Assembly (NCBI GenBank): GCA_951800365.1
Contig: CATOJW010000019.1
Span: forward strand, 1-63,128
Reading direction: 5' to 3'
Source: an uncultured Lachnospiraceae bacterium
Lineage (GTDB): Bacteria > Bacillota > Clostridia > Lachnospirales > Lachnospiraceae
Length of the DNA: 63,128 bases
Part shown: positions 1 through 50,782 of the stretch, piece by piece
How positions within the stretch are numbered: the stretch's first letter is position 1
Layout of the letters: every line of letters starts with the position of its first letter
Notes under the pieces: model-generated
Database searches by the model: none
Seen by the model: only the letters and a program-made list of their open reading frames with translations
Told to the model about the DNA's origin: nothing
Translations under genes and position numbers: made by a program

Positions 1-160
1 GAGCGGTTTATGCATTATTTACAAAAACACAGTGAAAAGGTATCTTGTTTTTTTCAACATAGAAAGTTGAAATATATTCAAGACTACGGCTATTAAAACA
101 TTGACTTTTAATAGCCGTAGTAATATAATCAATCATAAGAAAAAATTTTTTTCGCTCGAA

Positions 161-319
161 ATACACAGCCAAAGCCCCAAGGAAGGTCTGCGCAGGGTCA
201 TCTCGGCACTTAGACGTTGTGTTGCTGTGTTTTAGCGCCTTAGTGTCCGCTATGAGGAAATAAGAAATGCTAAGCACAAGCGAGCCCGGAACAGACCTTC
301 CTTGGAGCTTTGGCGTCCC
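161..319 (+). repeat. Type C structured repeat, copy C1 (about 160 bp, terminal inverted arms, ends in TGGCGTCC)
   Basis: Near-identical to copies at 3597, 10871 and 50613; arms ccaaggaaggtctgc / gaacagaccttccttgg are self-complementary, with internal hairpins. Confidence 0.8.
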
Positions 320-369
320 TTCTTCAACAAAATCAATCACTAACAACAACTACAAAAAGGAGTTTCCCA

Positions 370-3419: not shown

Positions 3420-3596
3420 ACTGTCTCCTTTTTCTTCTCATCATAAATCCACTTCATTTTCTCTCAGCTATCACAACATCATAACTCCCGTCCTCTAAAT
3501 CAAAATACTCCAAATATAAAAAACTTTCCCTAATCTAACAACACACAATCAAAAATCTGCACAAATCAGGTGCTAAAAAATTATGTCAATCAGGTA

Positions 3597-3763
3597 CACA
3601 CAGCCGAAAGCCAAATGGGGTTCTATGCAGGGTCATCATTTCCCGTCGGCACTTAAGCACTGTGTTGCTGTATTTTAGTGCCTTATGTGTCCGCTATGAA
3701 AATAGGAAATGCTAAGCGCAAGCGAGCCCGGAGCAGACCCCCTTTTGGATTTCAGCGTTTCCC
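3597..3763 (+). repeat. Type C structured repeat, copy C2
   Basis: Same family as 161-319; ends 4 bp downstream of the pepD stop. Confidence 0.8.
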
Positions 3764-3766
3764 TTA

Positions 3767-5248: not shown

Positions 5249-5347
5249 AAAATCAAAAAAAAATCAACCTGTTTTCTTGGCAGCCTGTTCTATTTACTTC
5301 ACTTTTGAATACATTAGCAATAAATAAAGAAAAAAGGCAGATCTTTT

Positions 5348-6259
5348 ATGGCAATTTTCCTGATTCTGGCATTTCTTATGCTGCTTTCTAATCCGGAAAT
5401 TACAGTTCTTGGTGCAAAAACAGGGTTAAACCTATGGTTAAACTCTGTTGTACCTTCCCTGCTTCCCTTTTTAATTTTTTCCAATCTGTTATTTGAAGCA
5501 GATGCAGTTTCCTATCTTACCGCTTTGCTTTCTCCTCTGTGCCATCTGCTGTTTGGCACTTCAAAAGACGGCAGTTTTGCTGTAATATCTGGCTTTCTAT
5601 GTGGATTTCCGATGGGCAGCAAAAGCTGTTTAGAATTAGTAAAGCACCAAAAAATAAAAAAAGAGGAAGCTGCTTATCTTGTCAGCTTCTGTAACAACGC
5701 AAGCCCTGCTTTTGTAATCAGCTTTATCTGTCATGGTATTTTCTCCGGCAAAAACGGACTTTTGCTGCCTGTCCTGTTTTCGTTTTACTCTGCCCCCCTT
5801 ATTACTGGTATTTTATTTCGCTTTCTTTTTCAAAAACAGACAAATGAACCTGACCTTTCTTTGCAAAGCAGTTCCCCGCCTGCTGCTTTTCAATTTCAAT
5901 ATCTAGATCACGCTATTATGAACGCTTTTCAAACGATTGTCCGTCTTGGAGGCTATATCACTTTTTTTGCCGTACTTTCCGCTTTTCTTCAGTCAGCAGT
6001 ATTTCTTCCTATACCGCTTCGCCTGTTTTTAACAGCCGTTATTGAACTGACAACCGGGGCAAGCCTGCTTGGAAAACTCCCTGTTTCTCTTAAACTTCGG
6101 GTCATTGCTGTCTGTGCCTGTGTTTCTTTCGGCAGCTTATCCGGCTTTGCCCAATCCTATACCCTGTTAAAAGAAGGAGAAATTCCGGCTCGTTATTATT
6201 TGGTTGGCAAACTGCTTACCTGCTTTCTTTGTACGGTTTTCCTTTTTATCTTTCTATAA
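5348..6259 (+). CDS. Polytopic membrane protein, YlbJ-like (sporulation integral membrane protein family)
   Basis: Multi-TM protein; Bacillus-like synteny next to coaD and rsmD (ylbH-ylbI-ylbJ). Confidence 0.5.
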   Translation: MAIFLILAFLMLLSNPEITVLGAKTGLNLWLNSVVPSLLPFLIFSNLLFEADAVSYLTALLSPLCHLLFGTSKDGSFAVISGFLCGFPMGSKSCLELVKHQKIKKEEAAYLVSFCNNASPAFVISFICHGIFSGKNGLLLPVLFSFYSAPLITGILFRFLFQKQTNEPDLSLQSSSPPAAFQFQYLDHAIMNAFQTIVRLGGYITFFAVLSAFLQSAVFLPIPLRLFLTAVIELTTGASLLGKLPVSLKLRVIAVCACVSFGSLSGFAQSYTLLKEGEIPARYYLVGKLLTCFLCTVFLFIFL

Positions 6260-6317
6260 ATAATCAAAAATGCAGTACATAAATTAACCACTATGTAGAC
6301 TACTTTTTTCCTGTCTT

Positions 6318-6947
6318 TTATTCATATTCATTTCCATTATAGTTTTCTGCTGCCTGTGTCTGATCTGAGTCCGAACTGGTATCCTGTTTGTTTTCTTCCG
6401 GCGGCAGCAGTTCTGCCCGATTAGTGCGAATCTGTTCATAAGTGGAAATCAATAATTTTTGAAAACTATCATATTTCATAGCGGCACTTTCCAATGTGTC
6501 CGCTATAATATTCTGTGTATCTGCAAGTATATCATCCGTATACTGAATTGCACCCATACGAATACTATTGGCATCCATTGCTGCAGCATCAATAATCTCC
6601 TGCGCCTGCTGTGTTGCCATCTGTAAAATCTCATTTGCTCTTAAATAAGCCTGCTGTACTACTTCACTTTCATTTACCAATTCATTGGTCTGTGTCTTGG
6701 CATCCTGTAGGAGCTTCGCTGCATCTGCCTGTGCTTTTGCTAGGATCTCATCCCGGTTTCGTATAATGCTCTGGTATTTTTTTATTTCATCCGGTGTGCG
6801 CAGTTTCAGTTCTGTAATTAACTCTAAAAACTGATCCTTATTCACAATAATCTTTGTGTTTGATAAGGGCTGCGGTTTACAGCCATCGATAAAATCCTCA
6901 ATCTCTTCGATTAGCTGCTCGATCTTACTGGTATTATTTGCACTCAT
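6318..6947 (-). CDS. Hypothetical coiled-coil protein (V-ATPase subunit H-like composition)
   Basis: Long ORF with good codon usage; coiled-coil, acidic C-terminus; no confident family assignment. Confidence 0.45.
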   Translation of the reverse strand: MSANNTSKIEQLIEEIEDFIDGCKPQPLSNTKIIVNKDQFLELITELKLRTPDEIKKYQSIIRNRDEILAKAQADAAKLLQDAKTQTNELVNESEVVQQAYLRANEILQMATQQAQEIIDAAAMDANSIRMGAIQYTDDILADTQNIIADTLESAAMKYDSFQKLLISTYEQIRTNRAELLPPEENKQDTSSDSDQTQAAENYNGNEYE

Positions 6948-6962
6948 TTACGATTTCTCCTT

Positions 6963-7448
6963 CTATCCACTCACTCCATACTTCTCATAGAGCTTCCTCA
7001 CAACCAACTCCGGCACAAATTTATAAATCGCTCCGCCCATTGCAGCTACTTCTTTTACTGTACTTGAACTAAGATAGGCATATTCTAAACGTGTTGTAAG
7101 AAAAACGGTTTCTATATTTGAATTTAATGCATGATTAATCTGTGACATCTGAAGCTCATACTCAAAATCAGTAATCGCACGCAGACCTCTGACAATCATA
7201 TTTGCCTGTGACTGTACAGCAAACTCTACTAACAAACCATCAAAAGACTGAATCGTTACATGTTTTAGGTGTCTTGTCACTTCTTTTAACATATTAACAC
7301 GTTCTTCTACGGAAAACAACGGACTTTTTGATTTATTATTTAAGACACCTACAATCAGCTCATCTGTAATGGCAAGGGAACGCTCAATAATATCTAAATG
7401 TCCCAATGTCACCGGATCAAAACTGCCGGGATAAATTGCTCGATTCAT
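6963..7448 (-). CDS. coaD: Phosphopantetheine adenylyltransferase
   Basis: [21 protein letters not shown] signature (HxGH nucleotidyltransferase). Confidence 0.95.
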
Positions 7449-7478
7449 AACAACTTTTTCTCCTTATATTTCTTTTGC

Positions 7479-8045
7479 CTATATTCTATTCTGGTTTCTT
7501 TTTAAAAAAATATGCTTATTCGTCTTATACTTTTTTTCTTTCTCTATTGCAAATCCCAGTATCTGTACATCCTCTAACTCCGTAGAAAGAGATGCTTCTA
7601 TCACAATGAAAGTATCCTCCCCTGCTAATTTCGAATCTCTTAAATACTGTAAAACCTGCCTCTCATACCCCTTTCGATAAGGAGGGTCTAAAAAAATAAC
7701 ATCAAATAAAATTTCCTCTCCTTCCAGCCTATTAAGTGCTGTCAAATAATCACATTCCATTACAACTGCATCTTCTTTTAATTTCGTAAATTCCAAATTG
7801 GCACGAATACATGCAGCCGCCTTTTTATTATTTTCTACAAAATAAGCTTTTTTTGCCCCACGACTCAATGCTTCAATTCCAATTCCTCCGCTGCCGGAAA
7901 AAAGATCCAAAACCAAACTATCTGGTATCTCTTGCTGCAGCATATTAAATAGCGTTTCTTTAATCCGATCGGTCGTTGGTCTGGTATCCTTTCCATCGAT
8001 TGTCTGAAGCGGAAGCCTCCTTGCCTTTCCTGCTATTACTCGCAT
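7479..8045 (-). CDS. rsmD: 16S rRNA (guanine966-N2)-methyltransferase RsmD
   Basis: DLFSGSGGIGIEALSRGA and FLDPPY motifs; adjacent to coaD as in Bacillus. Confidence 0.9.
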   Translation of the reverse strand: MRVIAGKARRLPLQTIDGKDTRPTTDRIKETLFNMLQQEIPDSLVLDLFSGSGGIGIEALSRGAKKAYFVENNKKAAACIRANLEFTKLKEDAVVMECDYLTALNRLEGEEILFDVIFLDPPYRKGYERQVLQYLRDSKLAGEDTFIVIEASLSTELEDVQILGFAIEKEKKYKTNKHIFLKRNQNRI

Positions 8046-8287
8046 TATACTCTCCTATCTTTTCTCTTTCTCCCTTTTCTTATCGTACACAGATTCTGCC
8101 AAAAATACCAGTATCTGTGTACGATAATGATTATAACAGAAAAATGACCGCTTACAAGTACTTTTTTCAGCGATCTACGACTTTTCTTTTTTTGGAATAT
8201 GATTTATACTAATTTTATCACAAGCTGCATATAAGATTTCCTATTATTTATAATTTATTCTATCCAAAAAAGGCAGGTGCAATTACT

Positions 8288-10051
8288 ATGAAAAAACATA
8301 CGCTAGAAACCTACTGGACCAAACATATTACAGAAACAAATGTCTGGCAGGAATACCCCCGTCCTACTATGGTTCGCTCCTCTTATATCAATTTAAATGG
8401 CTATTGGGACTATACCATCAGCCGAAACGCCAAATTTCCCTCCGCCTATAAGGGAAAAATTTTAGTTCCATTTTCTCCTGAATCCCAATTATCAGGAGTA
8501 AAACGCCAATTAAAACCAAATGAATTTCTTTGGTATCACAGAACGATTTCTTTTTTACAACTCCAACCTACCGAACGACTCTATCTGCATTTTGGTGCAG
8601 TCGATCAATCCTGCACCGTTTATATCAATCAAAAAGAAGTCGGATCACACAGCGGAGGTTATCTCCCTTTTTCTATAAATATTACAGAAGCAGTTCAAGA
8701 CACCTTCCAATCTCAAGAGATCTGTGATCTCTTTGTTCGAGTTACCGATCCCAGCGATACCTCCTATCACAGCCGTGGAAAACAAAAACTGCATAACAGT
8801 GGTATGTTTTATACGGCACAAAGCGGTATCTGGCAGACGGTTTGGATGGAAATTGTACCGGATAATTTTATACGCTATATAAAATTCACTCCCAACTATG
8901 ATAAAAAAGAAATAACTGTCAAGATTTCTACTAAAGAAACTTGTCCTGCTTCCATCAAGCTGCTTCTTCCGTCCGGCACATGTTCTTACTCCATTACCAG
9001 CAATCAAAGCTTCCTGATTCCAATTAAAGAATTTTATCCATGGAGCCCGGAACATCCCTATCTATATCAAGTAACCATTACAACTGCCACCGATCAAGTA
9101 TCTAGTTACTTTGCTCTTCGAAAATGTGATATACAAACGGATTCTAATGGGATTCGGCGAATTTTTCTCAACAACCGTCCTTATCCTCAAGTCGGAATCC
9201 TCGATCAGGGATACTGGCCGGACGGTCTTTACACCCCGCCATGCGAAGAAGCCATGATCTTTGATATCCTTTCTGTAAAAAAACTAGGCTTTAATATGAT
9301 ACGAAAACATCTGAAAATCGAATCCGAACGCTGGTATTATACCTGTGATCGGCTTGGTATTTTAGTCTGGCAGGATATGGTAAACGGCGGAAGTCATTAT
9401 CATCACTGGTTTGTTACTTATATGGCAACCCTTTTTAACTATTCCGGCAAAAGAGTTTTCGATCACCCTCATGCACTGCTTTCACGTCAAAATAAAGAAG
9501 GCAGAAAAGAATGGGCAAAAGAAATGGTTTCCAGCATCCGCTTTCTCTCTTCCCACCCCTGCATTATATGCTGGGTTCCATTTAACGAAGGCTGGGGACA
9601 ATTTCGGGCACTCTTTGCAGCAGAACTGATTCGCAGTCTGGATCCAGAACGACTGATCGATCATGCCAGCGGCTGGTTCGATCAAGGCGGAGGAGATATC
9701 AAAAGTATTCACTACTACTTTTTCTCACTGATTCTCCACCCGGAAAGACGTGCACTTGCTCTGACTGAGTTTGGCGGCTACGCTTGGCATGTACCAAAAC
9801 ATAGCTATTCCTCAAAAACATTTGGCTACCGCACCTTTCCTAACCGAAAATCTTTGACAAACGGCTATCATAAATTAATGGAAACACTGATTTTTCCAGC
9901 ATTTCAAAACGGACTTTCCGCTTCCGTTTATACACAGCTTTCCGACGTAGAAGAAGAAATCAACGGAATCTTTACCTATGACAGAAAAATTTTAAAAATC
10001 GATGCTCAAACCCTGATTGAATGGAATCAAAAAATTCGAGGGGGACGCTGA
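8288..10051 (+). CDS. Glycoside hydrolase family 2 protein
   Basis: GH2 sugar-binding/catalytic-like motifs (WSPEHPYLYQV, NEGWGQF), 587 aa. Confidence 0.65.
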   Translation: MKKHTLETYWTKHITETNVWQEYPRPTMVRSSYINLNGYWDYTISRNAKFPSAYKGKILVPFSPESQLSGVKRQLKPNEFLWYHRTISFLQLQPTERLYLHFGAVDQSCTVYINQKEVGSHSGGYLPFSINITEAVQDTFQSQEICDLFVRVTDPSDTSYHSRGKQKLHNSGMFYTAQSGIWQTVWMEIVPDNFIRYIKFTPNYDKKEITVKISTKETCPASIKLLLPSGTCSYSITSNQSFLIPIKEFYPWSPEHPYLYQVTITTATDQVSSYFALRKCDIQTDSNGIRRIFLNNRPYPQVGILDQGYWPDGLYTPPCEEAMIFDILSVKKLGFNMIRKHLKIESERWYYTCDRLGILVWQDMVNGGSHYHHWFVTYMATLFNYSGKRVFDHPHALLSRQNKEGRKEWAKEMVSSIRFLSSHPCIICWVPFNEGWGQFRALFAAELIRSLDPERLIDHASGWFDQGGGDIKSIHYYFFSLILHPERRALALTEFGGYAWHVPKHSYSSKTFGYRTFPNRKSLTNGYHKLMETLIFPAFQNGLSASVYTQLSDVEEEINGIFTYDRKILKIDAQTLIEWNQKIRGGR

Positions 10052-10052
10052 A

Positions 10053-10195
10053 ATGGGAAGAAAGGTCTATTCCGGGTCCGCTCTCGCTTAGCATTTCCTC
10101 GTAGCGGACACTAAGGTGCTAAAATACAGCACCTAAGTGCCGACGGGAAATGATGACCCTGCATAGACCTTTCTTCCCATTTCAGCTGTTTCTAC
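10053..10195 (-). repeat. Type C structured repeat, copy C3 (variant arms gggaagaaaggtctat / atagacctttcttccc)
   Basis: Reverse-complement homolog of the type C core; starts 2 bp after the GH2 stop. Confidence 0.75.
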
Positions 10196-10434
10196 CAGCC
10201 AGAATTTTCACTTTTTTACTCATAGCAAGTAATCTCTGATTCCATTTCTGGCTCAAGACAAAATACCAACGAAACATGTCGGTTTTTTACAGCATATCCA
10301 CTTGGATTTCTTGCTTGAAAAGTTGTAGTATGTTGTACAACATCAATCACTGTCCGATTATACATCCTTCCTTTTCTCCCTTTCTTCCAATCCAAACAAC
10401 TTTTGAATCAAAAGATAGAAAAAAACTGCAACTT

Positions 10435-10815
10435 TTATAATATCATACCCTTTTTTACTCTTGAAACAATATCCGTCCATTTCTTTCCTAGCCTAATACA
10501 TTCCTCATACAACAATTCTGGTTGATGTTCATACCTTGAAGGCGTTTCAAACGTACTAATCAAATCCACTTCATATACATTCTCTGACACCTTTTTACCA
10601 TACAACTCAGCATATGCACAAGTATATGGTAAATATTCTCTTATTTCATCTGTAATCGTCCATCTCTCCATCTTAATCAAATACCTCCTTATAAGTTTGC
10701 TCCAACGTTTCATACATTCCCAAACTATGTCTTTTAATACAGACAACATATTTTTATTCTTACTAAAATTCCCTTTATCAGCAGTTAAACCAACATATTT
10801 TGCAATACTTTCCAT
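10435..10815 (-). CDS. Hypothetical protein
   Basis: ORF with typical composition. The track start at 10938 runs into repeat C4, so I chose the internal ATG that gives MESIAKYVG. Confidence 0.35.
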   Translation of the reverse strand: MESIAKYVGLTADKGNFSKNKNMLSVLKDIVWECMKRWSKLIRRYLIKMERWTITDEIREYLPYTCAYAELYGKKVSENVYEVDLISTFETPSRYEHQPELLYEECIRLGKKWTDIVSRVKKGMIL

Positions 10816-10870
10816 ATCACTATCTATATAAGTTTTACTTAATTCCTGAACATTTATAATTATTCTGTTC

Positions 10871-11033
10871 TTCTGCCAGAAATACACAGCCAAAATCCGA
10901 AGGAAGGTCTGCACAGGGTCATCATTTCCCGTCGGCACTTAGGCGCTGTGTTTTAGCGCCTTATGTGTCCGCTACGAGGAAATGCTAAGCGCAAGCGGAC
11001 CCGGAGCAGACCTTCCTTCGGATTTTAGCGTCC
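10871..11033 (+). repeat. Type C structured repeat, copy C4 (canonical)
   Basis: aaaatccgaaggaaggtctgc ... gcagaccttccttcggatttt arms; ggcgctgtgttttagcgcc hairpin; ends in TAGCGTCC. Confidence 0.85.
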
Positions 11034-11037
11034 TCTT

Positions 11038-11514
11038 CTATAGAATTACTTCCATTCCTATTTTTTGTGGCTTTAGACCACACGCTTCATAAAATTTTAT
11101 TGCCGATTCATTTAAACTCCATACATTTAAAGTTACATTATAACAGTAATTTTGTTTTGCAAATGCATAGACTGCCTGATATAGACTGCTGCCGATATGC
11201 TGTCCTCTTTGGTTTTCTTCTACACATAAATCATCAATATACAGTGTTTTAATATCAGTTAAAATATTATCGTTCTTATGCTGCTGAAAGATACAAAATG
11301 CATATCCTAAAATATTCTGATTCTCATCTGCTGCCACAAAAATTGGTCGCTGAGCATCACGGATAATCTCTTTTAACTGTTCATCTGTATATTTTTTTGC
11401 TCCATATCGGAATAAATCCGGTCTGCCTTTATGATGAACCAAACAAACCTGCATTAACAAACGATTAATTCCTTCCAAATCTCTTTCTTCTGCTCTTCTG
11501 ATTTCCATTATCAT
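11038..11514 (-). CDS. GNAT family N-acetyltransferase
   Basis: Acetyl-CoA binding motif region (QRGQHIGSSLY), 158 aa. Confidence 0.7.
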   Translation of the reverse strand: MIMEIRRAEERDLEGINRLLMQVCLVHHKGRPDLFRYGAKKYTDEQLKEIIRDAQRPIFVAADENQNILGYAFCIFQQHKNDNILTDIKTLYIDDLCVEENQRGQHIGSSLYQAVYAFAKQNYCYNVTLNVWSLNESAIKFYEACGLKPQKIGMEVIL

Positions 11515-12173
11515 TATTCTCCGTCTATTACTGAAATTGATTCAATCACCGGCTGATTTTCTGTCGGCAGTACTCCATTAAAATCTTGCCCGGTAGCTGT
11601 TGCACAGATATCATCTACTACTTCCATTCCCTCTGTTACATATCCGAATACGGCATATTTTCCGTCTAAATCCGGGCTGTCCTGATGTACAATAAAAAAT
11701 TGACAACTTGCACTGTCCGGCATCATAGAACGTGCCATAGAGATTGCTCCTCTTGTATGCTTTAATGGATTTTCTATTCCATTTTCCGAAAATTCTCCGG
11801 TAATTTTGGTTTCCAATCCGCCATATCCATCTCCCTGCGGATCACCTCCCTGTATCATAAATCCATCTACTACCCGATGAAATGTAAGTCCATTATAAAA
11901 ACCAGACTCCACAAGATTAATAAAATTCGTAACGGTAATCGGTGCACTGTCCGCATCTAACTCCAAACGAATCGTTCCTTTTTCTTTTACAGAAATCTCT
12001 ACATAATGTTTTCCCGTCAAATATACTTCTGTACTTTGCTCTACCTGCAGTTCAGAAGTAGTATTTTCTGCATTTCCTGCTCCACATCCTGTCATCCCTA
12101 TACTAATTACCAAAACAGAAATAAAAAGGAGTCCTATCCCTTTCTTCCTTTTTAATTTTCTTTTTATTCTCAT
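11514..12173 (-). CDS. Cyclophilin-type peptidyl-prolyl cis-trans isomerase, lipoprotein
   Basis: Lipobox ISIGMTGC; HRVVDGFMIQGGDPQGDGYGG cyclophilin signature. Confidence 0.85.
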   Translation of the reverse strand: MRIKRKLKRKKGIGLLFISVLVISIGMTGCGAGNAENTTSELQVEQSTEVYLTGKHYVEISVKEKGTIRLELDADSAPITVTNFINLVESGFYNGLTFHRVVDGFMIQGGDPQGDGYGGLETKITGEFSENGIENPLKHTRGAISMARSMMPDSASCQFFIVHQDSPDLDGKYAVFGYVTEGMEVVDDICATATGQDFNGVLPTENQPVIESISVIDGE

Positions 12174-12210
12174 TACAAATTCTCCTTAACCATTTCATTT
12201 CATTAAGCAT

Positions 12211-12879
12211 TTAATCAAAACATTCTATTTTATCTGTATCCGCTTCCTTTTCATAAATTTGAATCATAGCATCAATTGAATCCACCACACTTACAATATG
12301 ATATTTTAACACAAACAAAGCATCTGCTTCATCTGGATACCTCTGCTTTATCTTTCGAAGAAGCGGAAGTACATACTGTCTGGTTTCTTCAATATATGCC
12401 TTTAACTTTTCCTTCGAAAAAGTTCCCGCCATACAAGAAACATTATGGCAGCGGTCAACCAATTTTGTAATAGCAGCCTCTCTGCTTTCCAAAATCCCAT
12501 TATAATAACGATTCTTGGCAATCTCTTTGGTTTCTCCTTCCATAACCCGAAATGTCATCAATGCTACACTGCGCCGCACAACATCATCCACCGGAAGTTC
12601 TTCTAAACTAATACCGCAATCCTCACAAACATCATGAAGCAGAATCGTTGCAATAATATTATCCTCCCGAATCCCGATACTTAATGCATTGCACGCCATA
12701 GTAAGCGGATGCACAATATAAGGTTCTCCTCCTTTCCGAGTCTGTCCCTCATGCTTGTCCCTTGCAAATGACAATGCCTTTAATGTCTGTGTCATCCCCG
12801 CCCCGGAAGCATAACCACGAATATAAGTATACATCTTCTCTGGATAAAACACGGTTCTTTCCATTTTTATCTCCTCCAT
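12211..12879 (-). CDS. HD domain phosphohydrolase
   Basis: H...HD motif (HPLTMACN...LLHDVCED). Confidence 0.65.
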
Positions 12880-13085
12880 TTTATTGTATCAACTGGTTCC
12901 TTCTCTACTCTTCCTGTTTAAAACTCTTCCCTTAACCCATACATAAGTCAAAGTTAAGACGAAAACTGCACGCTTCCCTCTCCATGCCAATACCAGTATA
13001 CACCTAAATAAGAAAAATGTCTTGTATTTATTTCTATAACTTTAATAAATTGGATAATGGAAGGAGAACACCAGAGGACGTCAGA

Positions 13086-13631
13086 GGACGCCAAATTCGA
13101 AAACAGTGAGCAGCCTGCTGTTCCAGTTTCCAAAAAGCAAGAAGTTCTAACTTTTTTCCAAAGTCACTGCAGGCTGCCCACTGTTTTCGAATCTGACTGT
13201 TTCTTGACTCCGAAACAAAAAAGAATGATGTCTAAACTTTACGGAAAACTTGCTCTGTAATAAAATATAACTTCTACTGTTATTCAGCCAACAGCGAGAG
13301 GCGGTTTGCTCCTGTCCTTTGCCAGCGACTTCGGAGAACGGTTAGAAAGTTTTGGGCTTCTGTTCGAAAACTTAGAATTTTTTGCATATCCTGCTTCCAT
13401 GCAGGGTATGCAAAAAAAGGGGCGTGTTTAGCCCGGAGAATAGAGAAGAGGCTGTTTTGTAGCTGGAAAAATTCTTCCTTACACCAATTATGTTTCGGCT
13501 GAAATGAGGGCGAATTGCGCCCCGGTTCGTCCGGTTGGATGAACCGAAATCAGAAGCCCTAGACTTTCTTACCGTTTGGAGCGGAGCAGGCAAAGGACAG
13601 GAGCAAACCGCCTCTGGCGTCCGGTGAAAGC
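13086..13631. repeat. Composite A/B structured repeat locus: core-less B arms (13086-13216), linker, then full A element (13290-13631)
   Basis: B arms ggacgccaaattcgaaaacagtgagcagcctgc / gcaggctgcccactgttttcgaatctg are joined directly with no core. The A element has 26-bp perfect terminal arms and a core with gcatatcctgc..gcagggtatgc and gggcgaattgcgccc hairpins. Confidence 0.85.
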
Positions 13632-13642
13632 ACCCCCTCATC

Positions 13643-14941
13643 CTATAAAATATCAATATATTCCCCTGCCAAAGCCTTGTTCATACTCCGCACAGCACAA
13701 AATTTTCCGCACATCGAACAAGTATCTTCCTGCTCCGGCTTTCGTTCTGCCCGAATCCTCTTTGCCGTTTCCGGATCAATCGCACATTCCCACTGTTTTT
13801 CCCAATCTAATTCCCTCCTTGCCTTTGCCATAGCATCGTCCTGTTCTCTAGCACCTCGAATCCCTTTTGCAATATCCGCCGCATGTGCTGCAATTCTCGA
13901 AGCAATCACTCCCTGTTTTACATCTTCTAAATTTGGCAGTGCCAAATGTTCTGCCGGTGTAACATAACAAAGAAAAGAAGCCCCGCAAGCCGCCGCCATC
14001 GCTCCGCCTATCGCCGCCGTAATATGATCATATCCCGGAGCAATATCCGTTACCAAAGGTCCTAATACATAAAAAGGCGCACCCATACAAATCGTCTGCT
14101 GAATTTTCATATTTGCAGCAATCTGATCCATTGGCATATGTCCCGGTCCTTCTACCATAACCTGTACATCCCTCTCCCACGCCCGTTTTGTCAATTCCCC
14201 CAACTTTACCAATTCTTCTATCTGGCAGACATCCGAAGCATCCGCAAGGCATCCCGGTCGGCAGGCATCACCAAGGGAAATCGTTACATCATATTCCCGG
14301 CAAATCTCTAAAATTTCATCATAATACTGATAAAACGGATTCTCCTCTCCTGTCATGCACATCCATGCAAAAACCAAAGAACCTCCCCGTGAAACCAAAT
14401 TCATCTTTCGTTTATGATTTCGAATCTGCTCTATTGTTTTTCTGGTAATTCCACAGTGCAAAGTGACAAAATCTACTCCGTTTTCCGCATGAAGCCGAAT
14501 CACATCTAAAAAATCTTTTGCACTTAATTCTGCCAAATCTCTTTGATAATGAATTACTGCATCATAAACCGGAACCGTACCTATCATAATCGGACACTCC
14601 GCCGTCAATTTTTTTCGAAACGGCTGTGTATCTCCATGAGAAGACAAATCCATAATCGAATGTGCCCCCATAGAAACCGCTTCCAATACTTTTTTCATCT
14701 CTGTATCATAATCTTTACAATCTCTTGACACACCAAGATTTACATTGATTTTTGTACGAAGCATCGAACCGATTCCCTCTGGTTCTAAACAACTATGATT
14801 TTTATTTGCACAAATCACCACTTTTCCCTCTGCTACAAGCGGCATTAACTCTTCTGCTGTCATTCTTTCCTTTTCGGCAACTATTTTCAACTGCTCCGTT
14901 ACGATTCCTTTCCGTGCTGCTTCCATTTGCGTTGTATACAT
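13643..14941 (-). CDS. thiC: Phosphomethylpyrimidine synthase
   Basis: Full-length ThiC with C-terminal [12 protein letters not shown] cluster motif. Confidence 0.95.
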
Positions 14942-14992
14942 CCCTTTTTCCTCCTGACTCTGCTATTTTTTATAATCTCCTTCACTTACTCT

Positions 14993-15793
14993 CTATTTAC
15001 ACCACATATGATTCAGCGGTCCATTTCCAGCTCCCAGATATATTTCATTCTGCAAAGCCCCATTAATATATTCTTTTGCCATTCTCACACTCTCTTCCAA
15101 ATTGCTTCCTTTTGCCAAATTTGCCGCTATTGCGGAACTCAATGTACACCCCGTTCCATGTGTATTTGAAACCAAATATCGCTTCCCGCTAATCCAAATC
15201 TTTCGATTCTCTTTCTGTTCATAAAGAAAATCATCTGCCTGACCTGCCCCATGTCCTCCTTTCAAAAGCACACTGCACCCATATCTCTGTCCAATTTCAA
15301 CCGCTGCCGCTGCGACTTGCTCTCCTGTTTCTATCTTTTTCCCCAAAAAAATCTCCGCCTCTGGTCTATTTGGCGTCACAAGTCTTGCCATCGGAAACAA
15401 CTTCTCTTCTAAATCCTTCCTGCCATCTTTATCCAAAAGTTCTGTCCCACTAGTAGAAGCCAGCACTGGATCAAAAACAATATTCTTTGCCCGATAATAA
15501 AAAAGACGCTCTGCTATTACATCTATAAAAAACTTTGAACCTATCATCCCAATCTTTACCGCATCCGGCACAATATCCGTAAAAATACTATCTATCTGCC
15601 TTTTTAAAAAATCCTCCGTCACAGTATGTACACCATAAATCCCTGTAGTATTTTGTGCAGTCAGTGCTGTAATCACACTCATCCCATAAGCTCCATGCAT
15701 TGTCATTGTCTTTAAATCCGCCTGAATTCCAGCACCACCCGAACAATCACTTCCTGCGATTGTAAGAACTGCTTTTATTTTCTCCCGTTCCAT
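14993..15793 (-). CDS. thiD: Hydroxymethylpyrimidine/phosphomethylpyrimidine kinase
   Basis: ThiD/PfkB-like (TIAGSDCSGGAGIQADLKT, GTGCTLSSAIAA). Confidence 0.9.
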   Translation of the reverse strand: MEREKIKAVLTIAGSDCSGGAGIQADLKTMTMHGAYGMSVITALTAQNTTGIYGVHTVTEDFLKRQIDSIFTDIVPDAVKIGMIGSKFFIDVIAERLFYYRAKNIVFDPVLASTSGTELLDKDGRKDLEEKLFPMARLVTPNRPEAEIFLGKKIETGEQVAAAAVEIGQRYGCSVLLKGGHGAGQADDFLYEQKENRKIWISGKRYLVSNTHGTGCTLSSAIAANLAKGSNLEESVRMAKEYINGALQNEIYLGAGNGPLNHMWCK

Positions 15794-15823
15794 TTTAATT
15801 ACTTTAAACCTCCCTTCGGATTT

Positions 15824-16492
15824 TTATATTCCTTTTTCCTTTTTAAAAAGTTTCCGACACTTTTGTAAAAGCTGACTTACCCCCTGCTCAATCTCCGCTT
15901 GTGCAAAAATCGCACGAATCATTGCAACCCCGCAAATCCCTGTCCCTTCAAGCTGTCCCATATTTTCCTCCGTAATTCCTCCGATTGCTACAACCGGAAC
16001 AGAAACTGCCTGACAAATCCTGCACAAAGTATCTCTATCAACTGCCTGTGCATCTGCTTTCGATCTTGTAGTAAACACTGCTCCCACTCCAAGATAATCC
16101 GCTCCCTGCCGCTCTGCCAAAACCGCCTGCTCCACCGTCTGCACTGATACACCCAAAATCTTTTCTTTCCCAATCTTCTCTCTCACCAAAGAAGCTGCCA
16201 TATCACTCTGCCCTACATGCACCCCGTCTGCATCCATCCGACAGGCAATCTCCACTTGATCATTAATCAAAAAAGGGACTTTATACTGTCTGCACAATCT
16301 CTGAATCTCTAAAGCCTCTTGATAAATCCCCCCTTTAAAAAAATCCTCCTGAGCCTCCATAAGACTTTTTTCCCGAAGCTGCAGTATCGTAATTCCTCCC
16401 TTTAGCGCCTCTTCCACCTGCCAAGCCAGCGTCTTTCCATTTAACCAACTTCGATCCGTTACGGCATACAACAATAAATCATTGCACTTCAT
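15824..16492 (-). CDS. thiE: Thiamine-phosphate synthase
   Basis: LYAVTDR N-terminus; ThiE fold motifs. Confidence 0.9.
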   Translation of the reverse strand: MKCNDLLLYAVTDRSWLNGKTLAWQVEEALKGGITILQLREKSLMEAQEDFFKGGIYQEALEIQRLCRQYKVPFLINDQVEIACRMDADGVHVGQSDMAASLVREKIGKEKILGVSVQTVEQAVLAERQGADYLGVGAVFTTRSKADAQAVDRDTLCRICQAVSVPVVAIGGITEENMGQLEGTGICGVAMIRAIFAQAEIEQGVSQLLQKCRKLFKKEKGI

Positions 16493-17300
16493 AATTTGCC
16501 CCTTTCTCTAATTCCTCTCCGCTAATTACCCCAATCTCATCAATAATTCGATTTCGATAGGAAATATTTCCATCTCTTGCTTCCATTCGCTTCCATGCCA
16601 ATTCTCCGGCAAGCCCCATCAGACATACCGCTGCTGCACAAGCATCTAACTTTCTTTCTGGATTTGCCGCCAAATAAGCAGTAATTAACCCAGAAAGCTG
16701 ACATCCCGTTCCGGTAATCCGTCCCATCTGCGGACGCCCGTTATAAATTACATAACAACGATTCCCATCCGAAACCAAATCAATCGCCCCTGTACAAACA
16801 ATGATACTCTTTTGCTCCTTTGCAAACGCCTTTAAAAACAAAACCATCTCATCCAAATTTTCTTTCGTTACCGTATCCGCCTGATTTGCATCCACTCCCT
16901 GCGTTGTCTTACTTCCCAATGCCAATGTCTTAATCTCTGAACTATTTCCCCGAATACAATCAAACGGAATCTCCTGCATCAACTTCAATGCTGTATTTGT
17001 ACGAAGCGAGCTTGCTCCCGCCCCCACCGGATCAAGCAAAATACAATGCCCCAGCTCAGCAGCCCGTTTTCCTGCCGCAAACATAGCAGGAATCGTATGC
17101 TGATTCAGCGTCCCAATATTAATATTTAACCCATTGCAAATTTCCGTAATCTCCGCTGCCTCCTGCGGATCATCTGCCATAATCGGACTTGCTTTACAAG
17201 CAAGCAGCACATTTGCCACATCATTTACCGTTACATAATTTGTAATATTATGAATCAACGGTTTCTTTTCTCCCACAGCCTCTAAACATTCTTTCAACAT
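16479..17300 (-). CDS. thiM: Hydroxyethylthiazole kinase
   Basis: PLIHNITNYVTVNDVANVLLA ThiM signature. Confidence 0.9.
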   Translation of the reverse strand: MLKECLEAVGEKKPLIHNITNYVTVNDVANVLLACKASPIMADDPQEAAEITEICNGLNINIGTLNQHTIPAMFAAGKRAAELGHCILLDPVGAGASSLRTNTALKLMQEIPFDCIRGNSSEIKTLALGSKTTQGVDANQADTVTKENLDEMVLFLKAFAKEQKSIIVCTGAIDLVSDGNRCYVIYNGRPQMGRITGTGCQLSGLITAYLAANPERKLDACAAAVCLMGLAGELAWKRMEARDGNISYRNRIIDEIGVISGEELEKGANYEVQ

Positions 17301-17404
17301 TTCAGTTCCTCCTTCTTCTCACTTAGAAACATAAATTTGCCAAATTTTATTCTATTTTAACATACACAACAGTACCCCATTTTCTGGCGTCCTTCCTAAT
17401 TACA

Positions 17405-17545
17405 CACAAAAAATGCAGATACGCCAAAAAAGCATATCTGCATCCTATCTTTGCAAACTATGTCCCTACGTTGGCATTATCCAAATCAGGTTTTAAGGGT
17501 AAAAGCCTCACATGCTTACTCTCAGCCTATTCTAATAAGCTCCCC
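17405..17545 (-). promoter_or_regulatory. TPP (THI-box) riboswitch with intrinsic terminator expression platform upstream of thiMEDC
   Basis: The minus strand reads ggctgagag...acccttaaaacctgatttggataatgccaacgtaggga, which contains the CUGAGA motif and the pyrimidine-sensing helix. It is followed by a gcagatatgc/gcgtatctgc hairpin plus a T-run. Confidence 0.9.
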
Positions 17546-17595
17546 ATATCTTACATTATAACTATTTTATAACAAAAAACAACCCTTTTTTTACA

Positions 17596-37599: not shown

Positions 37600-38051
37600 C
37601 CGGACACCAAAGATAATTTGCTTTCACCGGACGCCAGAAGCGGGGGGCTCCTTTCCTCTGGCTGTTGATTAGCTCAAGGCAGAAAGATAAGATTTTTTTC
37701 GTTCCGGGGTCAGAAAACAGCCAGATTCGAAAACGGTGAACCGCCTGCAGTGACTTTGGAGAAAAGTTAGAAGTTCTTGACTTCTGCTCAAAAACCTAAG
37801 ATTTTTTTCACATACTGCTTTCATGCAGTGTGTGAAAAAAAAGGAGCGTGTTTAGCCCGCATATGTTTAAGGAAGCGATTGTTTTATGGCAGATAGAATC
37901 ATCTGAAACGCCAATTTCGTTCTGGCTGCCATGCGGGCGAATTGCGCTCCGGTCTGTCCGGTCAGAAAAATAGAACGGCAGAAGTCTAGAACTTCTTACT
38001 TTTTGGAAATCGGAACAGCAGGCGGTTCACCGTTTTCGAATCTAGCGTCCT
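37600..38051. repeat. Composite repeat: degenerate A arms, then linker, then full B element (arms ggtgaaccgcctg / caggcggttcacc)
   Basis: The B core hairpin variant cacatactgc..gcagtgtgtg has a compensatory change relative to cacatcctgc..gcagggtgtg. Confidence 0.85.
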
Positions 38052-38058
38052 CCTATTT

Positions 38059-40797
38059 CTATTTCAAAAACTCCCACGCCTCAAATACCTTCTCTGCAAT
38101 CAAAGCCGCCTTATTTCCTCCAGCTCCTCCTTCCTCTACAATTACACTTACCACAATCTCCGGTGCTTCTGCCGGCACAAATCCGACAAACCAAGAATGT
38201 GCCTCCTTTTCTGGATTCCATTCTGCCGTACCTGTTTTTCCTGCTACCTGATAATTATCTAAAGCAGCACGATACCCTGTTCCCTCTGTTACACACAATG
38301 TCATCCATTCTGTTATCTGCTGTGCCTCTTCTTTGGTCATTGGCACACTATAATCCTGCGGCTGATATTTTTTCACCAAATTTCCATGTGCATCCGTAAT
38401 GGCATCTGCCAGATAAGGTTTCCTCATCACTCCGTCATTTGCAACAGCAGATACCACCATAGCCAAATGAAGCGGTGTCATCTCCACTGTACCCTGCCCG
38501 ATTACCGTCTGTAAAATTTCCCATGACGATGACTCCTCTGTCATATGAAACCGACTCGATACATAAGACAAAGGAAACGGCAAATCCTGATTAAATAAAA
38601 AATCTTCACAAAGAGCAGTAAAACGTTCTGGCGAAAGTTCTGAACCAATATCAGCAAACGCTCCATTGCAAGACTTCGCAAATGCCATTTCAAAAGAAAG
38701 TATTCCGTGAGCATTTTGATGATAACATTGGATTGCACCTTTCTGATCTTTTTGATACCAGTAAAAGCCCTTGCAGTCATAAGAAAATTTAGAAATTTCT
38801 TCGGGATACTCCCTTAGATACTCTAATGCTGTTAAAATCTTAAAAGTAGATCCGGGCGGATAGCGTCCCTGTGTCGCACGATTTAACAGATAACTCTGAT
38901 GTTTTTCTTCTTCGTTTGAAAGAGATTCCCAGATTTCCTCGATTTGATTGGGATCATAATCTGGTTTTGAAACCATAGCAAGAATTTTCCCAGTAGCCGG
39001 TTCTATCACCACAACTGCTCCCGTTTCTCCTTCCAACGCCTCAAAAGCCGCTGTCTGAAGTGTATAATTTAAAGTTGTTATCAACCGATTTCCTTCATCC
39101 TTTTCTTCTTTCAGCTTATTGGCAATCTTTTCATAGACAGGAAGATCCGAGGTCAAAAGCTGAAAATTATAAACTTTTTCTAACCCGTCTTTACCACTCT
39201 GAGAATACCCTGCCACATGGGAAAACAAATTTCCAAACGGATATACTCTTATTTCCGTTCCGTCCTCTTTTTTCTGTGTTTCTGCTATTACTCGATTATC
39301 TGCCGTATAGATTGTACCACGAATCACCTTTTTTGCAAAATTTTCCTGTCTTAAATTATAAGGATTGTTAATAATTTCCCTGCTTTCTGTAAAAAGAAAA
39401 TACCCAAGATAACATGGCATTAAAACAAACAGTCCTGTAAACAGATACATTACCAAATACAATTCCCGATTTCCTGCCGCCTTATTTTCTATACTGCTCT
39501 CCTCTTTTTTTTGCATACGAGTATCTGCTTCCGAAATATAAAGCCCCTGTATAATTCCATACATCACCAAGGAACTTAACATCGAACTTCCTCCATAACT
39601 GACAAACGGAATGGTTACTCCGGTAGAAGGAATCAGCTTCATTGCTCCTCCAATCGTTAAAAATACCTGTATTCCATACTCACAGGCAAGCCCAAGTGCC
39701 ATATAGCGGTAAAAATTGCTGTGCATTTGAAGTGCAATATTTAGAATTAAAAGCAGACATCCTAAACAGATTAAAATCACACAGATCGCAGTTAAACCTC
39801 CCAATTCCTCAGAAATCGCCGAAAAAATAAAATCCTCTTCTACTACCGGAATCTGTGAAGGAGATCCCTGATTTAATCCCACTCCCAGCCATCCTCCTGT
39901 TCCGATGGCAAAAAGTGACTGCGCAATCTGATATCCCTTGCTCTCAATCACTGACCAAGGATCTAACCATGCCGTTACCCGAGTCTGGATATGAGAAAAC
40001 ATCTGATAGGCAATATAAGAAGCCCCTGCTCCTGCAAACAATCCTCCAAACAGATAAATTGGTTTTTTTGTAGCTGCATAAACCATAAATACAAACACCA
40101 ACGAAAAGATCAACGCACTTCCCAAATCAGTAGAAGCCACTAAAATCAAAATATGCATCGCTGCCAAAAATCCTGTTTTTATCACCTGTTTTATATCACT
40201 TCTTACTTCAAACATAGCAGCAATAAAAAATACATAGCTGATTTTTACAAACTCGGAAGGCTGAAACGAAATACCCAGCAGTGCAATCGAAAGTTTTGCA
40301 CCATAACTGGTTTCCGCTAAAATCAAAACTACAGAAAGCAAAAGCACTCCGGCAACACCATAAAGCCATGCAAATTTTCTTAATGCTTTCCATTTTTTCA
40401 TAATAAACGGAATTACAAACATAAAAACCGTTCCGACAAAAAGAATAAAAAACTGTTTACTTGCCTTTACACTAGAAAGTCTTGCCAGCATAAGAAACCC
40501 TATCACCATCAGCATACAAACAAGACTTGTAAATAATTTCGAACCCTCTGGATAAATCATAGAAAATAACGTTTCTAATAAAATCAAATAGACGAGTTCT
40601 GCCCCATACAATAAAATCAGGTTTTCATTTCCTGTAGATAAAAATAAAGATAAAAAACCAAGAAAATGTACAGAAAATAAACAAATATTTAAAACTGCTA
40701 TTTTTTTCTTTCTATAATAAGCAAAAGAATAATACGTATATATCATTGTCAGCAGGATGATTAAATATTTTGAAAGTTCCTGTATTAGATTTTCCAT
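38059..40797 (-). CDS. SEDS glycosyltransferase (FtsW/RodA/SpoVE family) fused to class B penicillin-binding protein transpeptidase
   Basis: N-terminal about 420 aa with 10 TM helices and SEDS motifs. C-terminal bPBP with STFK, SCN and KTGT active-site motifs. Confidence 0.8.
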   Translation of the reverse strand: MENLIQELSKYLIILLTMIYTYYSFAYYRKKKIAVLNICLFSVHFLGFLSLFLSTGNENLILLYGAELVYLILLETLFSMIYPEGSKLFTSLVCMLMVIGFLMLARLSSVKASKQFFILFVGTVFMFVIPFIMKKWKALRKFAWLYGVAGVLLLSVVLILAETSYGAKLSIALLGISFQPSEFVKISYVFFIAAMFEVRSDIKQVIKTGFLAAMHILILVASTDLGSALIFSLVFVFMVYAATKKPIYLFGGLFAGAGASYIAYQMFSHIQTRVTAWLDPWSVIESKGYQIAQSLFAIGTGGWLGVGLNQGSPSQIPVVEEDFIFSAISEELGGLTAICVILICLGCLLLILNIALQMHSNFYRYMALGLACEYGIQVFLTIGGAMKLIPSTGVTIPFVSYGGSSMLSSLVMYGIIQGLYISEADTRMQKKEESSIENKAAGNRELYLVMYLFTGLFVLMPCYLGYFLFTESREIINNPYNLRQENFAKKVIRGTIYTADNRVIAETQKKEDGTEIRVYPFGNLFSHVAGYSQSGKDGLEKVYNFQLLTSDLPVYEKIANKLKEEKDEGNRLITTLNYTLQTAAFEALEGETGAVVVIEPATGKILAMVSKPDYDPNQIEEIWESLSNEEEKHQSYLLNRATQGRYPPGSTFKILTALEYLREYPEEISKFSYDCKGFYWYQKDQKGAIQCYHQNAHGILSFEMAFAKSCNGAFADIGSELSPERFTALCEDFLFNQDLPFPLSYVSSRFHMTEESSSWEILQTVIGQGTVEMTPLHLAMVVSAVANDGVMRKPYLADAITDAHGNLVKKYQPQDYSVPMTKEEAQQITEWMTLCVTEGTGYRAALDNYQVAGKTGTAEWNPEKEAHSWFVGFVPAEAPEIVVSVIVEEGGAGGNKAALIAEKVFEAWEFLK

Positions 40798-47668: not shown

Positions 47669-47775
47669 AGGGGGACGCTGGAATTGAAAAGAAGATCTAT
47701 TTAGGATCTGCTTTCGCTTAGCATTTCTGATGACCCTTCATAGACCTTCTTTCCAATTCCAGCTATTTCTATCAG
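47669..47775 (-). repeat. Truncated type C repeat, copy C5 (arms only)
   Basis: gggggacgctggaattgaaaagaagatctat ... atagaccttctttccaattccagc; lies 33 bp downstream of the oxidoreductase stop. Confidence 0.65.
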
Positions 47776-47807
47776 CCTCAAATAATAACGTCCTTTCTGA
47801 AAAATAT

Positions 47808-50465: not shown

Positions 50466-50612
50466 CTGGCGTCCTCTTAAATTCCAAAAGCCTAATCAAA
50501 GTTATTATTATTATAATTTTTCAAAAAATTTCCACTTTAAATTAAAAATTTAGTATTAAGTTTTTATTATAAATATTTACAACAAATTTCACCCCTGCTC
50601 TATTTTCCGGCA

Positions 50613-50782
50613 AAAATACACAGCCAAAATCCGAAGGAAGGTCTGCAAAGGGTCATCATTTCCCGTCAGCACTTAGGCACGGTCTTGCTGTGTTTTCGTG
50701 CCTTATGTGTCCGCTATGAAAATAGGAAATGCTAAGCCCAAACGGGCTCGGTGCAAACCTTCCTTCGGATTTTGGCGTCCCC
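50613..50782 (+). repeat. Type C structured repeat, copy C6
   Basis: Inner hairpin variant ggcacg..cgtgcc; ends 3 bp from the GerKA stop. Confidence 0.8.

Follow-up and report, generated by a model that had tools for sequence, protein, structure and literature searches.

A highly abundant, hairpin-forming repeat of about 185 bases lies just 3' of stop codons in a few Lachnospiraceae genomes

The window, that is, the whole 63,128-nt stretch of DNA analysed here, carries six copies of a repeat designated type C, together with several smaller or larger relatives. The six copies had been reported in the initial annotation, and a family profile built from them (alignment A1) was used to search the window with nhmmer, which recovered all six and one related mini-element. 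Pfam identifies M20 peptidase, GH2, GNAT, aldo/keto reductase with Fer4 domains and GerA genes as neighbours of the type C copies, in agreement with the earlier naming of these genes as pepD, GH2, GNAT, oxidoreductase and gerKA. We define the sense strand of the element as the strand that starts with GGRGGACGC. The copies, the parts of the copy designated c4 and the related elements are as follows.

156..320, minus strand: c1, type C (nhmmer E = 2.2e-49)
3590..3762, minus strand: c2, type C, 4 nt past the TGA stop of the M20 peptidase gene pepD (nhmmer E = 7.6e-55)
10040..10200, plus strand: c3, type C, overlapping the 3' end of the GH2 gene (nhmmer E = 1.8e-49)
10871..11037, minus strand: c4, type C, starting 2-4 nt past the TAG stop of the GNAT gene (11038-11040); nhmmer match 10875-11035, E = 8.7e-53
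11028..11037, minus strand: 5' leader of c4, AAGAGGACGC, the conserved family terminus GGRGGACGC
11006..11029, minus strand: P1 5' arm of c4, GCTAAAATCCGAAGGAAGGTCTGC, whose partner is 10889-10912
10913..11005, minus strand: core of c4, a three-way junction with GCTTAGCATTTCC and GGGAAATGATGACCC, recognised by its conservation
10942..10960, minus strand: apical hairpin of c4, GGCGCT / loop / AGCGCC, recognised by helix 5 covariation
10889..10912, minus strand: P1 3' arm of c4, recognised by fold and covariation
10871..10888, minus strand: 3' tail of c4, (GGC)TGTGTATTTCTGGCAGAA, the conserved second family terminus, recognised by the information profile
27740..27812, minus strand: minimal hairpin with leader GGGGGACGC, 13-bp stem and tail GCTGTTTCTTGGC, 20 nt past the stop of 27831..29624
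30278..30350, minus strand: mini-element with type C leader and 5' arm and a symmetric closing end, GGGGACGCCGAAAG...TTCCGGCGTCC (nhmmer fragment 30308-30347, model positions 2-41)
37720..38054, minus strand: type B element with leader GGAGGACGC and tail GGCTGTTTTCTGACC..GAAAAAAAT, 4 nt past the stop of 38059..40797
47671..47777, plus strand: c5, type C with the core deleted, about 107 nt, with leader, P1 and tail left (two nhmmer matches, model positions 2-59 and 125-174)
50609..50782, minus strand: c6, type C, 2-4 nt past the TAG stop of the GerA gene (nhmmer E = 5.1e-56)

The short distances to stop codons given in the initial annotation are correct: 4 nt for c2, 2 nt for c4 and c6, 30 nt for c5 (whose 3' end faces the stop of the converging aldo/keto reductase gene), and an overlap with the GH2 stop for c3. 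This last copy contributes the final GH2 codons and the TGA stop itself (GGACGC-TGA; ..KIRGGR*). No gene ends at c1, the first copy, which occupies a divergent promoter region between the start of a minus-strand gene (about 146) and that of a plus-strand gene (about 370). The copy c6 is followed in tandem by a type B unit, and the mini-element at 30278..30350 abuts the TAG stop of 30352..33012. Two descriptions had to be changed. Every copy was said to end in GGCGTCC, which is true of c1 and c6 only, since c3, c4 and c5 end in AGCGTCC and c2 in AGCGTTTCC. The copies were also described as mostly antisense relative to the gene upstream; when the gene is read on its sense strand, c2, c3, c4 and c6 begin with GGRGGACGC at the stop, and c5 alone among the window copies has its non-leader end facing a stop. 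The polarity of the element follows the gene, and "antisense" was a choice of strand for labelling.

To describe the anatomy of the element we aligned 173 full type C copies with their flanks, and set the boundaries by per-column information content alone. The order of the parts is a purine-rich leader ending in GGACGC, the 24-bp 5' arm of P1, a core of about 95 nt in which short helices surround a three-way junction and an apical hairpin, the 3' arm of P1, and the tail GGCTGTGTAYTCCAGACSGAAAA. The leader consensus is GGRGGACGC, and information content climbs at position -5 relative to GGACGC (169 copies). Both termini are conserved. The upstream flanks are unique and weakly T-rich, and the downstream flanks often hold further repeats, including degenerate 3' half copies.

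The fold of the element is strongly supported. The copy c4 reaches a folding energy of -90.6 kcal/mol on the minus strand and -84.9 kcal/mol on the plus strand, with shuffled sequences averaging about -50 (z = -10.4). For the leader motif GGACGCYRRA, 0.52 occurrences would be expected in the window and 22 are present; together with the z score of c4, this excludes chance. Among 77 diverse copies (alignment A2), 93.2% of the cells at paired positions hold standard pairs compared with 83.0% in shuffled alignments, none of 500 shuffles reached the observed pairing, and 40 of the 55 pairs show changes on both sides; when the partner column was slid by one to three positions as a control, pairing dropped to 34-44%. 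Both sides have changed in 26 of the 30 pairs of helix 1 (P1), and in helix 5, the apical hairpin, the covarying pairs are GC/AU, CG/UA and GC/AU. The terminal arms of about 20 bp and the covarying inner hairpin noticed in the initial annotation are therefore found again in both the fold and the alignment.

We also compared each copy with the consensus of its five nearest relatives, counting the differences as private changes. At paired positions there were 188 single changes and 73 double ones, and each of the 73 leaves a Watson-Crick pair in place, with no pair broken. Core sequences are on average 87% identical between pairs of copies and arm sequences 67%, although the arms remain complementary, and the private substitution rate is 2-3% in the core (2% at its paired positions) compared with 5% in the arms. 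A core more conserved than the arms is odd for a MITE and could mean a function at the level of the host. Over the whole element, the median pairwise identity between copies is 79%, the median to the nearest neighbour is 90% and the maximum is 98%, suggesting that the copies are moderately old.

The leader and the tail are not exclusive to type C. The GGACGCYRRA leader also heads the larger type A and type B repeats of the window, a stub 3' of the stop of 23984..25096, and a collapsed copy directly past a TPP-riboswitch terminator. The type B element at 37720-38054 has the same kind of leader and tail as type C, with different arms and interior, and a tail of this kind is also present on mini elements; mini forms with symmetric ends exist as well. 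As the leader and tail are common to type C, type B and the minimal hairpins, the conserved parts are two unlike termini joined by a stem, and the interior is interchangeable. From these sequence comparisons, the best explanation appears to be a superfamily, comprising type C, types A and B and the minimal hairpins, defined by 5' GGRGGACGC and 3' GCTGTNT..GAAAA termini. The idea that types A and B carry inverted repeats like those of Tn3/Tn4430 was dropped when type B proved to have the asymmetric leader and tail of type C.

Analysis of species-representative genomes with a two-block pattern returned at least 118 blocks of 8 kb (0.98 Mb), nearly all of them from the MAG CBFFYP01, an uncultured Lachnospiraceae; the other blocks among the matches listed were a few from the mouse-gut MAG MGBC128194 and one chance match. 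In the 0.98 Mb sampled, of which about 0.9 Mb belongs to one MAG, nhmmer found at least 228 non-overlapping type C matches, at least 188 of them full length. The host range is narrow: among the matches listed, the element was present in two Lachnospiraceae MAGs and in relatives of the window. Similarity searches of plasmid collections, phage collections and IMG/VR returned no type C. The JGI metagenomes gave 10 matches, none recognised by the family HMM, and we treated them as chance since about 8 would be expected by our own estimate. An exact-protein look-up of the window genes matched only strains with the same insertions, or nothing. These data show that type C is a real, highly abundant, hairpin-forming repeat just 3' of stop codons in a few Lachnospiraceae genomes.

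No Rfam model matched type C at gathering thresholds over the whole window, and a search of 10800-11100 at E <= 10 gave only noise (miRNA, lncRNA and Staphylococcus sRNA models, 14-19 bits). Group II intron domains, omega-RNA/HEARO and ribozymes were set aside, as no Rfam covariance model matched; hammerhead-like motifs had no Rfam support either, and a K-turn or box C/D reading of the UGAUGA in the core was abandoned when, by eye, the matching CUGA strand was missing. We found no description of the family in literature on Lachnospiraceae MITEs, on REPIN/RAYT in Firmicutes and on EFAR. Type C is thus a family described in none of the libraries searched here, and the earlier impression of a distinct family is upheld for a high-copy, structured repeat of gene 3' ends with no Rfam match.

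The position of the copies relative to genes was analysed in the related MAG with genes called crudely, by greedy selection of non-overlapping ORFs of 100 aa or more. In 124 of 164 copies the neighbour on the leader side is a same-sense gene that presents its stop, at a median distance of 27 nt; on the tail side the median gap is about 200 nt. Within 60 nt, the leader end lies near a same-sense stop in 85 of 149 copies and the tail end near the stop of a converging gene in 20 of 149, so that the 3'-end bias on which the initial annotation depended is present in the MAG sampled. In regions of tandem genes there are 73 sense and 26 antisense copies (p = 2.5e-6), or 56 and 13 when members of close pairs are removed (p = 1.7e-7). 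A sense copy within 100 nt of the stop follows 15% of majority-strand genes and 15% of minority-strand genes, which ties polarity to the gene and not to the replication strand; an orientation by replication strand in the manner of IS200/IS605 was rejected on these figures.

The junction with the gene end was also examined. Among 106 sense-adjacent copies, 25 start no more than 10 nt from the stop, and in 17 of these 25 the stop is TAG, against a background of 33% (p = 3.5e-4); in two copies the element supplies the stop (GGACGC-TGA). The TAG junctions prompted the idea of a TA target, as in mariner-like elements, which was rejected as TA frequency is flat across the junction. Neither TA nor another fixed dinucleotide was found there, the leader is not preceded by a conserved 4-5-nt target, and the longest substrings common to the two flanks, taken as a measure of target-site duplication, were equal to those of a shuffled-partner control. 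Of 169 copies, just 6 have a canonical terminator in the 60 nt upstream, which means that terminators are not what the element generally targets, whether in a manner like group IIC introns or another, and that most copies should be within the transcript. The repeat was earlier likened to elements that stabilise mRNAs or terminate transcription, and termination is not borne out by its sequence: no T-run follows the hairpin on either strand, the consensus past the stem being GGCTGTGTATTCCAGACGGAAAA on the sense strand and GCGTCCTCC on the other, indicating that type C is not an intrinsic terminator.

Neighbouring copies form 42 tail-to-tail, 9 tandem and 3 head-to-head pairs, and no gene lies between the partners in 24 of the 42 tail-to-tail pairs. 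Tail-to-tail pairs were also found between tandem genes, and the similarity between partners does not exceed that of randomly chosen copies. Each partner is therefore a copy in its own right, and we rejected the possibility that such pairs are the long inverted ends of one composite element.

Comparison with relatives revealed differences in presence and turnover of the elements. Window positions 1-17300 have a syntenic counterpart in the Logan contig L128 (GH2 identity 80%). None of c1, c2, c3, c4 or the type A/B element at 13083-13632 is present there, and its 17.4 kb are free of GGACGC motifs. The convergent gap between GH2 and GNAT is 26 nt in this contig and 986 nt in the window, where it holds c3, two small ORFs and c4; between pepD and LytR, an element-free gap of 56 nt in L128 corresponds to one of 347 nt in the window. 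At the 3' end of GH2, four lineages display four states (overlap, mini copy, full copy, none), as follows.

Window: c3 overlaps the last codons, ..KIRGGR* against ..RIRNC and ..KIKEI in homologues
L125: mini copy 17 nt past the stop
L124: full copy 33 nt past the stop
L126 and L127: no copy

In addition, in two MAGs of different species with flanking genes 91% identical, the same gene is followed by copies of different subfamilies. In the inner part of P1 about 6 of 10 positions differ between these two copies (by eye), each compensated in the opposite arm; the apical hairpins differ, an 8-nt insert is present in one copy only, and only one MAG has a 65-nt spacer between stop and element. At the empty site of L126 and L128, the terminator (AAGGCGCTAAAAACAGCGCCTT) matches the apical hairpin of the family consensus over 23 aligned bases with one 1-nt gap (by eye).

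We interpret type C, with a probability of about 0.6, as a small, parasitic, non-autonomous mobile DNA element of the REP/REPIN/MITE kind, whose copies gather past stop codons with the leader towards the gene. A structure-specific enzyme acting in trans would recognise the folded single strand, presumably through the foot of the stem and, in type C, the conserved junction core, and would move or copy the element with no target duplication. Lineages that have lost the hairpin would cease to propagate, leaving the arms free to differ yet complementary. New copies would land or survive mainly just past stops, with the leader towards the gene, and tail-to-tail beside existing copies. An inserted element would be co-transcribed as a very stable 3'-UTR hairpin, which may secondarily block 3' exonucleases or insulate translation. 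Mobilisation as a single strand, the class of the enzyme and any effect at the RNA level are what this scheme proposes. Gene-sense polarity, the TAG excess, the high conservation of the core and the match between apical hairpin and terminator remain unexplained by it, and we know of no means by which a DNA transposon would sense gene polarity. With canonical terminators upstream of 6 of 169 copies only, a preference for terminators does not account for that polarity either.

The sampled ORFs contained no multi-copy transposase, and no mobilising gene with type C ends was found in the approximately 0.9 Mb sampled from one MAG. The 126-aa ORF between c3 and c4, considered as a RAYT or transposase, has no Pfam match. 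Local phmmer searches with IS200 and IS608 TnpA queries, followed by Pfam confirmation, identified three Y1 transposase (Y1_Tnp) genes in the sampled loci.

L051:7564-7965: intact Y1 gene, 570 nt downstream of a type C copy that has the same orientation
L042:6352-6693: Y1 gene with a degenerate HUH motif, followed by tnpB, directly past a type C copy and a 3' half copy
L046:1103-1507: solitary Y1 gene with no flanking type C copies

The IS605-like element of L042 and L051 was rejected as the partner of type C, since its end hairpins CCCAnTGGCTTTAGACnnTGGG bear no relation to the termini of type C. Enzymes of this class are therefore encoded in the genome, but no link to type C was found.

Among known systems, the REP/BIME type to which the initial annotation likened the repeat is a partial match. 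Type C has in common with REP, BIME and REPIN, which are mobilised by RAYT (Y1 HUH) transposases (PMC3337134), the hundreds of extragenic copies at gene 3' ends, a hairpin with compensated evolution of the arms, inverted doublets and the absence of target duplication; a few bases are conserved at the foot of the stem, and the minimal hairpin at 27740-27812 resembles a REP with conserved flanks. A REP or REPIN is an imperfect palindrome of 20-40 nt with a conserved 5' GTAG tetranucleotide, whereas type C is about 185 nt long with an asymmetric three-way-junction core and a foot of GGAC..GC/GC..TGT, and its minimal forms of about 70 nt also lack GTAG. Further differences are that the type C termini are unlike each other, that polarity to the upstream gene is strong, that the host is a Firmicute, and that the single-copy RAYT flanked by repeats has no counterpart in the approximately 0.9 Mb of one MAG. 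The resemblance thus stands for copy number, extragenic site, inverted pairs and absence of target duplication, and type C fails the features that define REP sequences.

Bacterial MITEs and structured repeats such as ERIC/IRU, Correia/NEMIS, RUP and BOX (PMC2229807) are similarly small, non-coding and high-copy, with ends that pair into a long stem-loop, co-transcription with neighbours, possible effects on mRNA stability, and deleted and composite variants. Type C differs from classical MITEs in having no target-site duplication and in that its interior is better conserved than its arms. The 24-bp P1 arms are inverted as terminal inverted repeats are, but the extreme ends differ (GGRGGACGC and GCTGTGTAYTCC) and pair at 6 of 7 positions past a 3-nt bulge in one subfamily only; the related IS expected of a MITE was not found with type C ends in the sampled ORFs, plasmids, phages or IMG/VR. 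PATEs, palindrome-associated elements derived from IS200/IS605, have asymmetric ends, hairpin dependence, no target duplication and strand-specific insertion in common with type C, and Y1 transposase genes occur in the MAG that carries it. Against this likeness, besides the unrelated IS605-like ends, type C has no 4-5-nt target and is oriented by the gene.

The main alternative explanation, which we regard as rather unlikely, is that type C is primarily a host-functional cis-acting RNA. The 3'-UTR hairpin and core would bind a protein or block 3'-5' exonucleases, stabilising the mRNA or stopping re-initiation by ribosomes, and transposition would serve for delivery only; mRNA stabilisation by REPs and the ribosome termination structure would be comparable cases. 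REP elements within 15 nt of stop codons affect translation. The RNA explanation is favoured by the sense-oriented, stop-adjacent placement of type C regardless of replication strand, by the 25 copies, out of 106 that are sense-adjacent, whose distance to the stop is no more than 10 nt, by the rarity of interposed canonical terminators (6 of 169), which places most copies within the transcript, and by a core conserved above the arms with 2% private change at its paired positions. A very stable mRNA structure immediately 3' of the stop has a described role in translation insulation (PMC7518266); such functional descriptions concern generic local structures or REPs, and type C is a repeat family known from sequence alone.

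The strand signal does not favour this RNA function. Within stems, G.U and A.C mismatches on the sense strand number 165 and 378, figures dominated by four subfamily-marker columns, and among private single changes there are 64 G.U and 97 A.C. As G.U does not exceed A.C, the counts argue weakly against selection on a sense RNA hairpin at each locus, and they would be compatible with a requirement at the DNA level or on the opposite strand. Moreover, antisense copies make up 19-26% of those in tandem regions, some copies (c1 among them) are located at promoters, close relatives have no element at the same genes, and other subfamilies replace copies at one site. A mobile element and a function in the 3' UTR are not exclusive of each other.

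A bolder proposal, to which we assign only a small chance, is that elements with this leader and tail form a new class of single-strand mobile element, one that integrates at gene ends by sensing transcription or translation termination and not a DNA sequence. Such coupling would explain the gene-sense polarity on both replication strands, the abutment to stops, among which TAG is in excess, the repeated use of given gene ends in different lineages, and the identical termini on a bare hairpin, the type C core and the type B body of 300 nt. In that case the conserved junction core of type C would bind a protein and serve a separate role.

It is very unlikely that the copies are folded-DNA recombination sites with a logic like that of attC, at which a site-specific recombinase would exchange elements or the segments between tail-to-tail pairs. 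This would suit the retention of structure under varying arm sequence, the copies directly 3' of ORFs, the other subfamily at the same site in two MAGs, the tail-to-tail pairs that sometimes enclose small ORFs missing in relatives (window 10201-10870), and the two paralogous small tyrosine recombinases in the MAG sample. However, neither recombinase gene lies next to a copy, the genes on either side of copies are housekeeping genes in conserved order and not cassettes, and pair partners are no closer to each other than random copies. Integron attC sites have R''/R' core sites and lie in cassette arrays near an integrase, and the corresponding RYYYAAC/GTTRRRY core sites are absent from the ends of type C, which is not an attC site and belongs to no Rfam family. 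That type C copies are independently transcribed small RNA genes, for instance guide-type RNAs for TnpB or a similar nuclease, can practically be dismissed despite the stable conserved structure and the TnpB and Y1 transposase genes in the same MAG (once beside a copy), for no promoter or terminator signals bracket the copies, Rfam gives no match, including omega-RNA and HEARO-type models, the end hairpins of the TnpB locus are its own and unrelated, and hundreds of copies lie within 3' UTRs.

If type C is a mobile element of the REP/REPIN/MITE kind, a few gut Lachnospiraceae would carry several hundred copies, right past the stop of about one gene in seven in the sampled blocks. The elements would rewrite stop codons and C-termini, as in GH2 of the window, would enlarge intergenic gaps of 26-120 nt to about 1 kb, and would add a hairpin of -90 kcal/mol to many 3' UTRs. 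For annotation, the copies yield spurious ORFs and break metagenome assemblies, and the contig L124 ends within a copy. Conserved asymmetric termini, no target duplication and a polarity independent of the replication strand fit, in combination, no well-characterised mode of transposition, and the type C enzyme, if found, might bring to light a new principle of targeting. At many genes of these bacteria, the elements may also influence how stable transcripts are and how translation terminates.

The larger types A and B repeats in the window have the same GGRGGACGC leader as type C, the hairpin repeat of about 185 nt found after stop codons, and type B also carries the GCTGT..GAAAA tail of type C. 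Like type C, they begin a few nucleotides 3' of stop codons. Their units are 330–570 nt long, are frequently arranged tail-to-tail (tail ends facing) and contain the terminator-like hairpin TTTTTTGCATATCCTGC..GCAGGGTATGCAAAAAAA. Copies at 80–90% identity are present in CBFFYP01, the Lachnospiraceae MAG that supplied nearly all the sampled 8-kb loci.

Types A/B repeats in the window
13083–13632
33452–34268
37600–38054
43725–44534
47247–47495
50074–50474
53254–54213
55808–56294
59315–60307
62786–63113

Beside one of these repeats, an ORF at 47495–47546 (-), with the start MSTLLEAKEVTKIYEK, reads straight into the element end. By eye, this start resembles the N-terminus of an ABC-transporter ATPase, and the ORF appears to be a gene cut off by insertion.

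At the GH2/GNAT site, the element-free contigs carry a bidirectional terminator, TAAGGCGCTAAAAACAGCGCCT (L126 4765–4786, equivalent to L128 11765–11786 and L127 2092–2113). Aligned by eye, it matches the apical hairpin of the type C copy c4 (window 10934–10962) over 23 bases with one 1-nt gap, and the family-consensus apical hairpin is likewise matched over 23 bases with a 1-nt gap. No further solitary copies of this hairpin were found in the 1 Mb searched. The terminator could be a remnant of a lost element, or the progenitor of the type C core. In the window, the tail-to-tail copies c3 and c4 at this site enclose two small ORFs of 126 and 49 aa (10201–10870, -), the former with no Pfam match. 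Both ORFs were found in the same-species contigs L119–L123, are missing from the syntenic contig L128, and could represent cargo or a separate insertion.

The MAG loci also encode transposases and recombinases. The IS200/IS605-family content comprises three Y1_Tnp genes plus a single TnpB gene, whose TNB domain is Cas12f1-like; two genes of this family lie directly 3' of type C copies, and the end hairpins of these elements are CCCAnTGGCTTTAGACnnTGGG. The two small tyrosine recombinases are paralogous and consist of the PF00589 catalytic domain only.

Transposase and recombinase genes in MAG loci
L042 5099–6693 (-), IS200/IS605 family
L051 7564–7965 (+), IS200/IS605 family
L046 1103–1507 (-), IS200/IS605 family
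L047 419–997 (-), tyrosine recombinase, 192 aa
L055 6635–7288 (-), tyrosine recombinase, 217 aa

Among the RNAs of the window, the TPP riboswitch precedes the thiamine operon, and a collapsed leader/tail element lies about 10 nt past the T-run (17383–17392) of its terminator. Tandem 66-nt units at 20230–20757 (at least six overlapping 198-nt copies) fall within a 1086-aa ORF (20177..23437, -), which suggests a repetitive protein.

RNAs in the window
58756–59116 (-), tmRNA
58659–58732 (-), tRNA
34455–34537 (-), tRNA
17446–17556 (-), TPP riboswitch

Contig L124 terminates within a type C copy (4798–4868), as does the examined stretch of L123 (4754–4844), and these repeats probably break up metagenome assemblies of their host organisms. 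Of the stop codons that end ORFs longer than 150 aa in all sampled loci, 33% are TAG, which we take to be unusually high for an A+T-rich Firmicute; this share may be a side effect of the G-rich leaders adjoining TA(A) stops.
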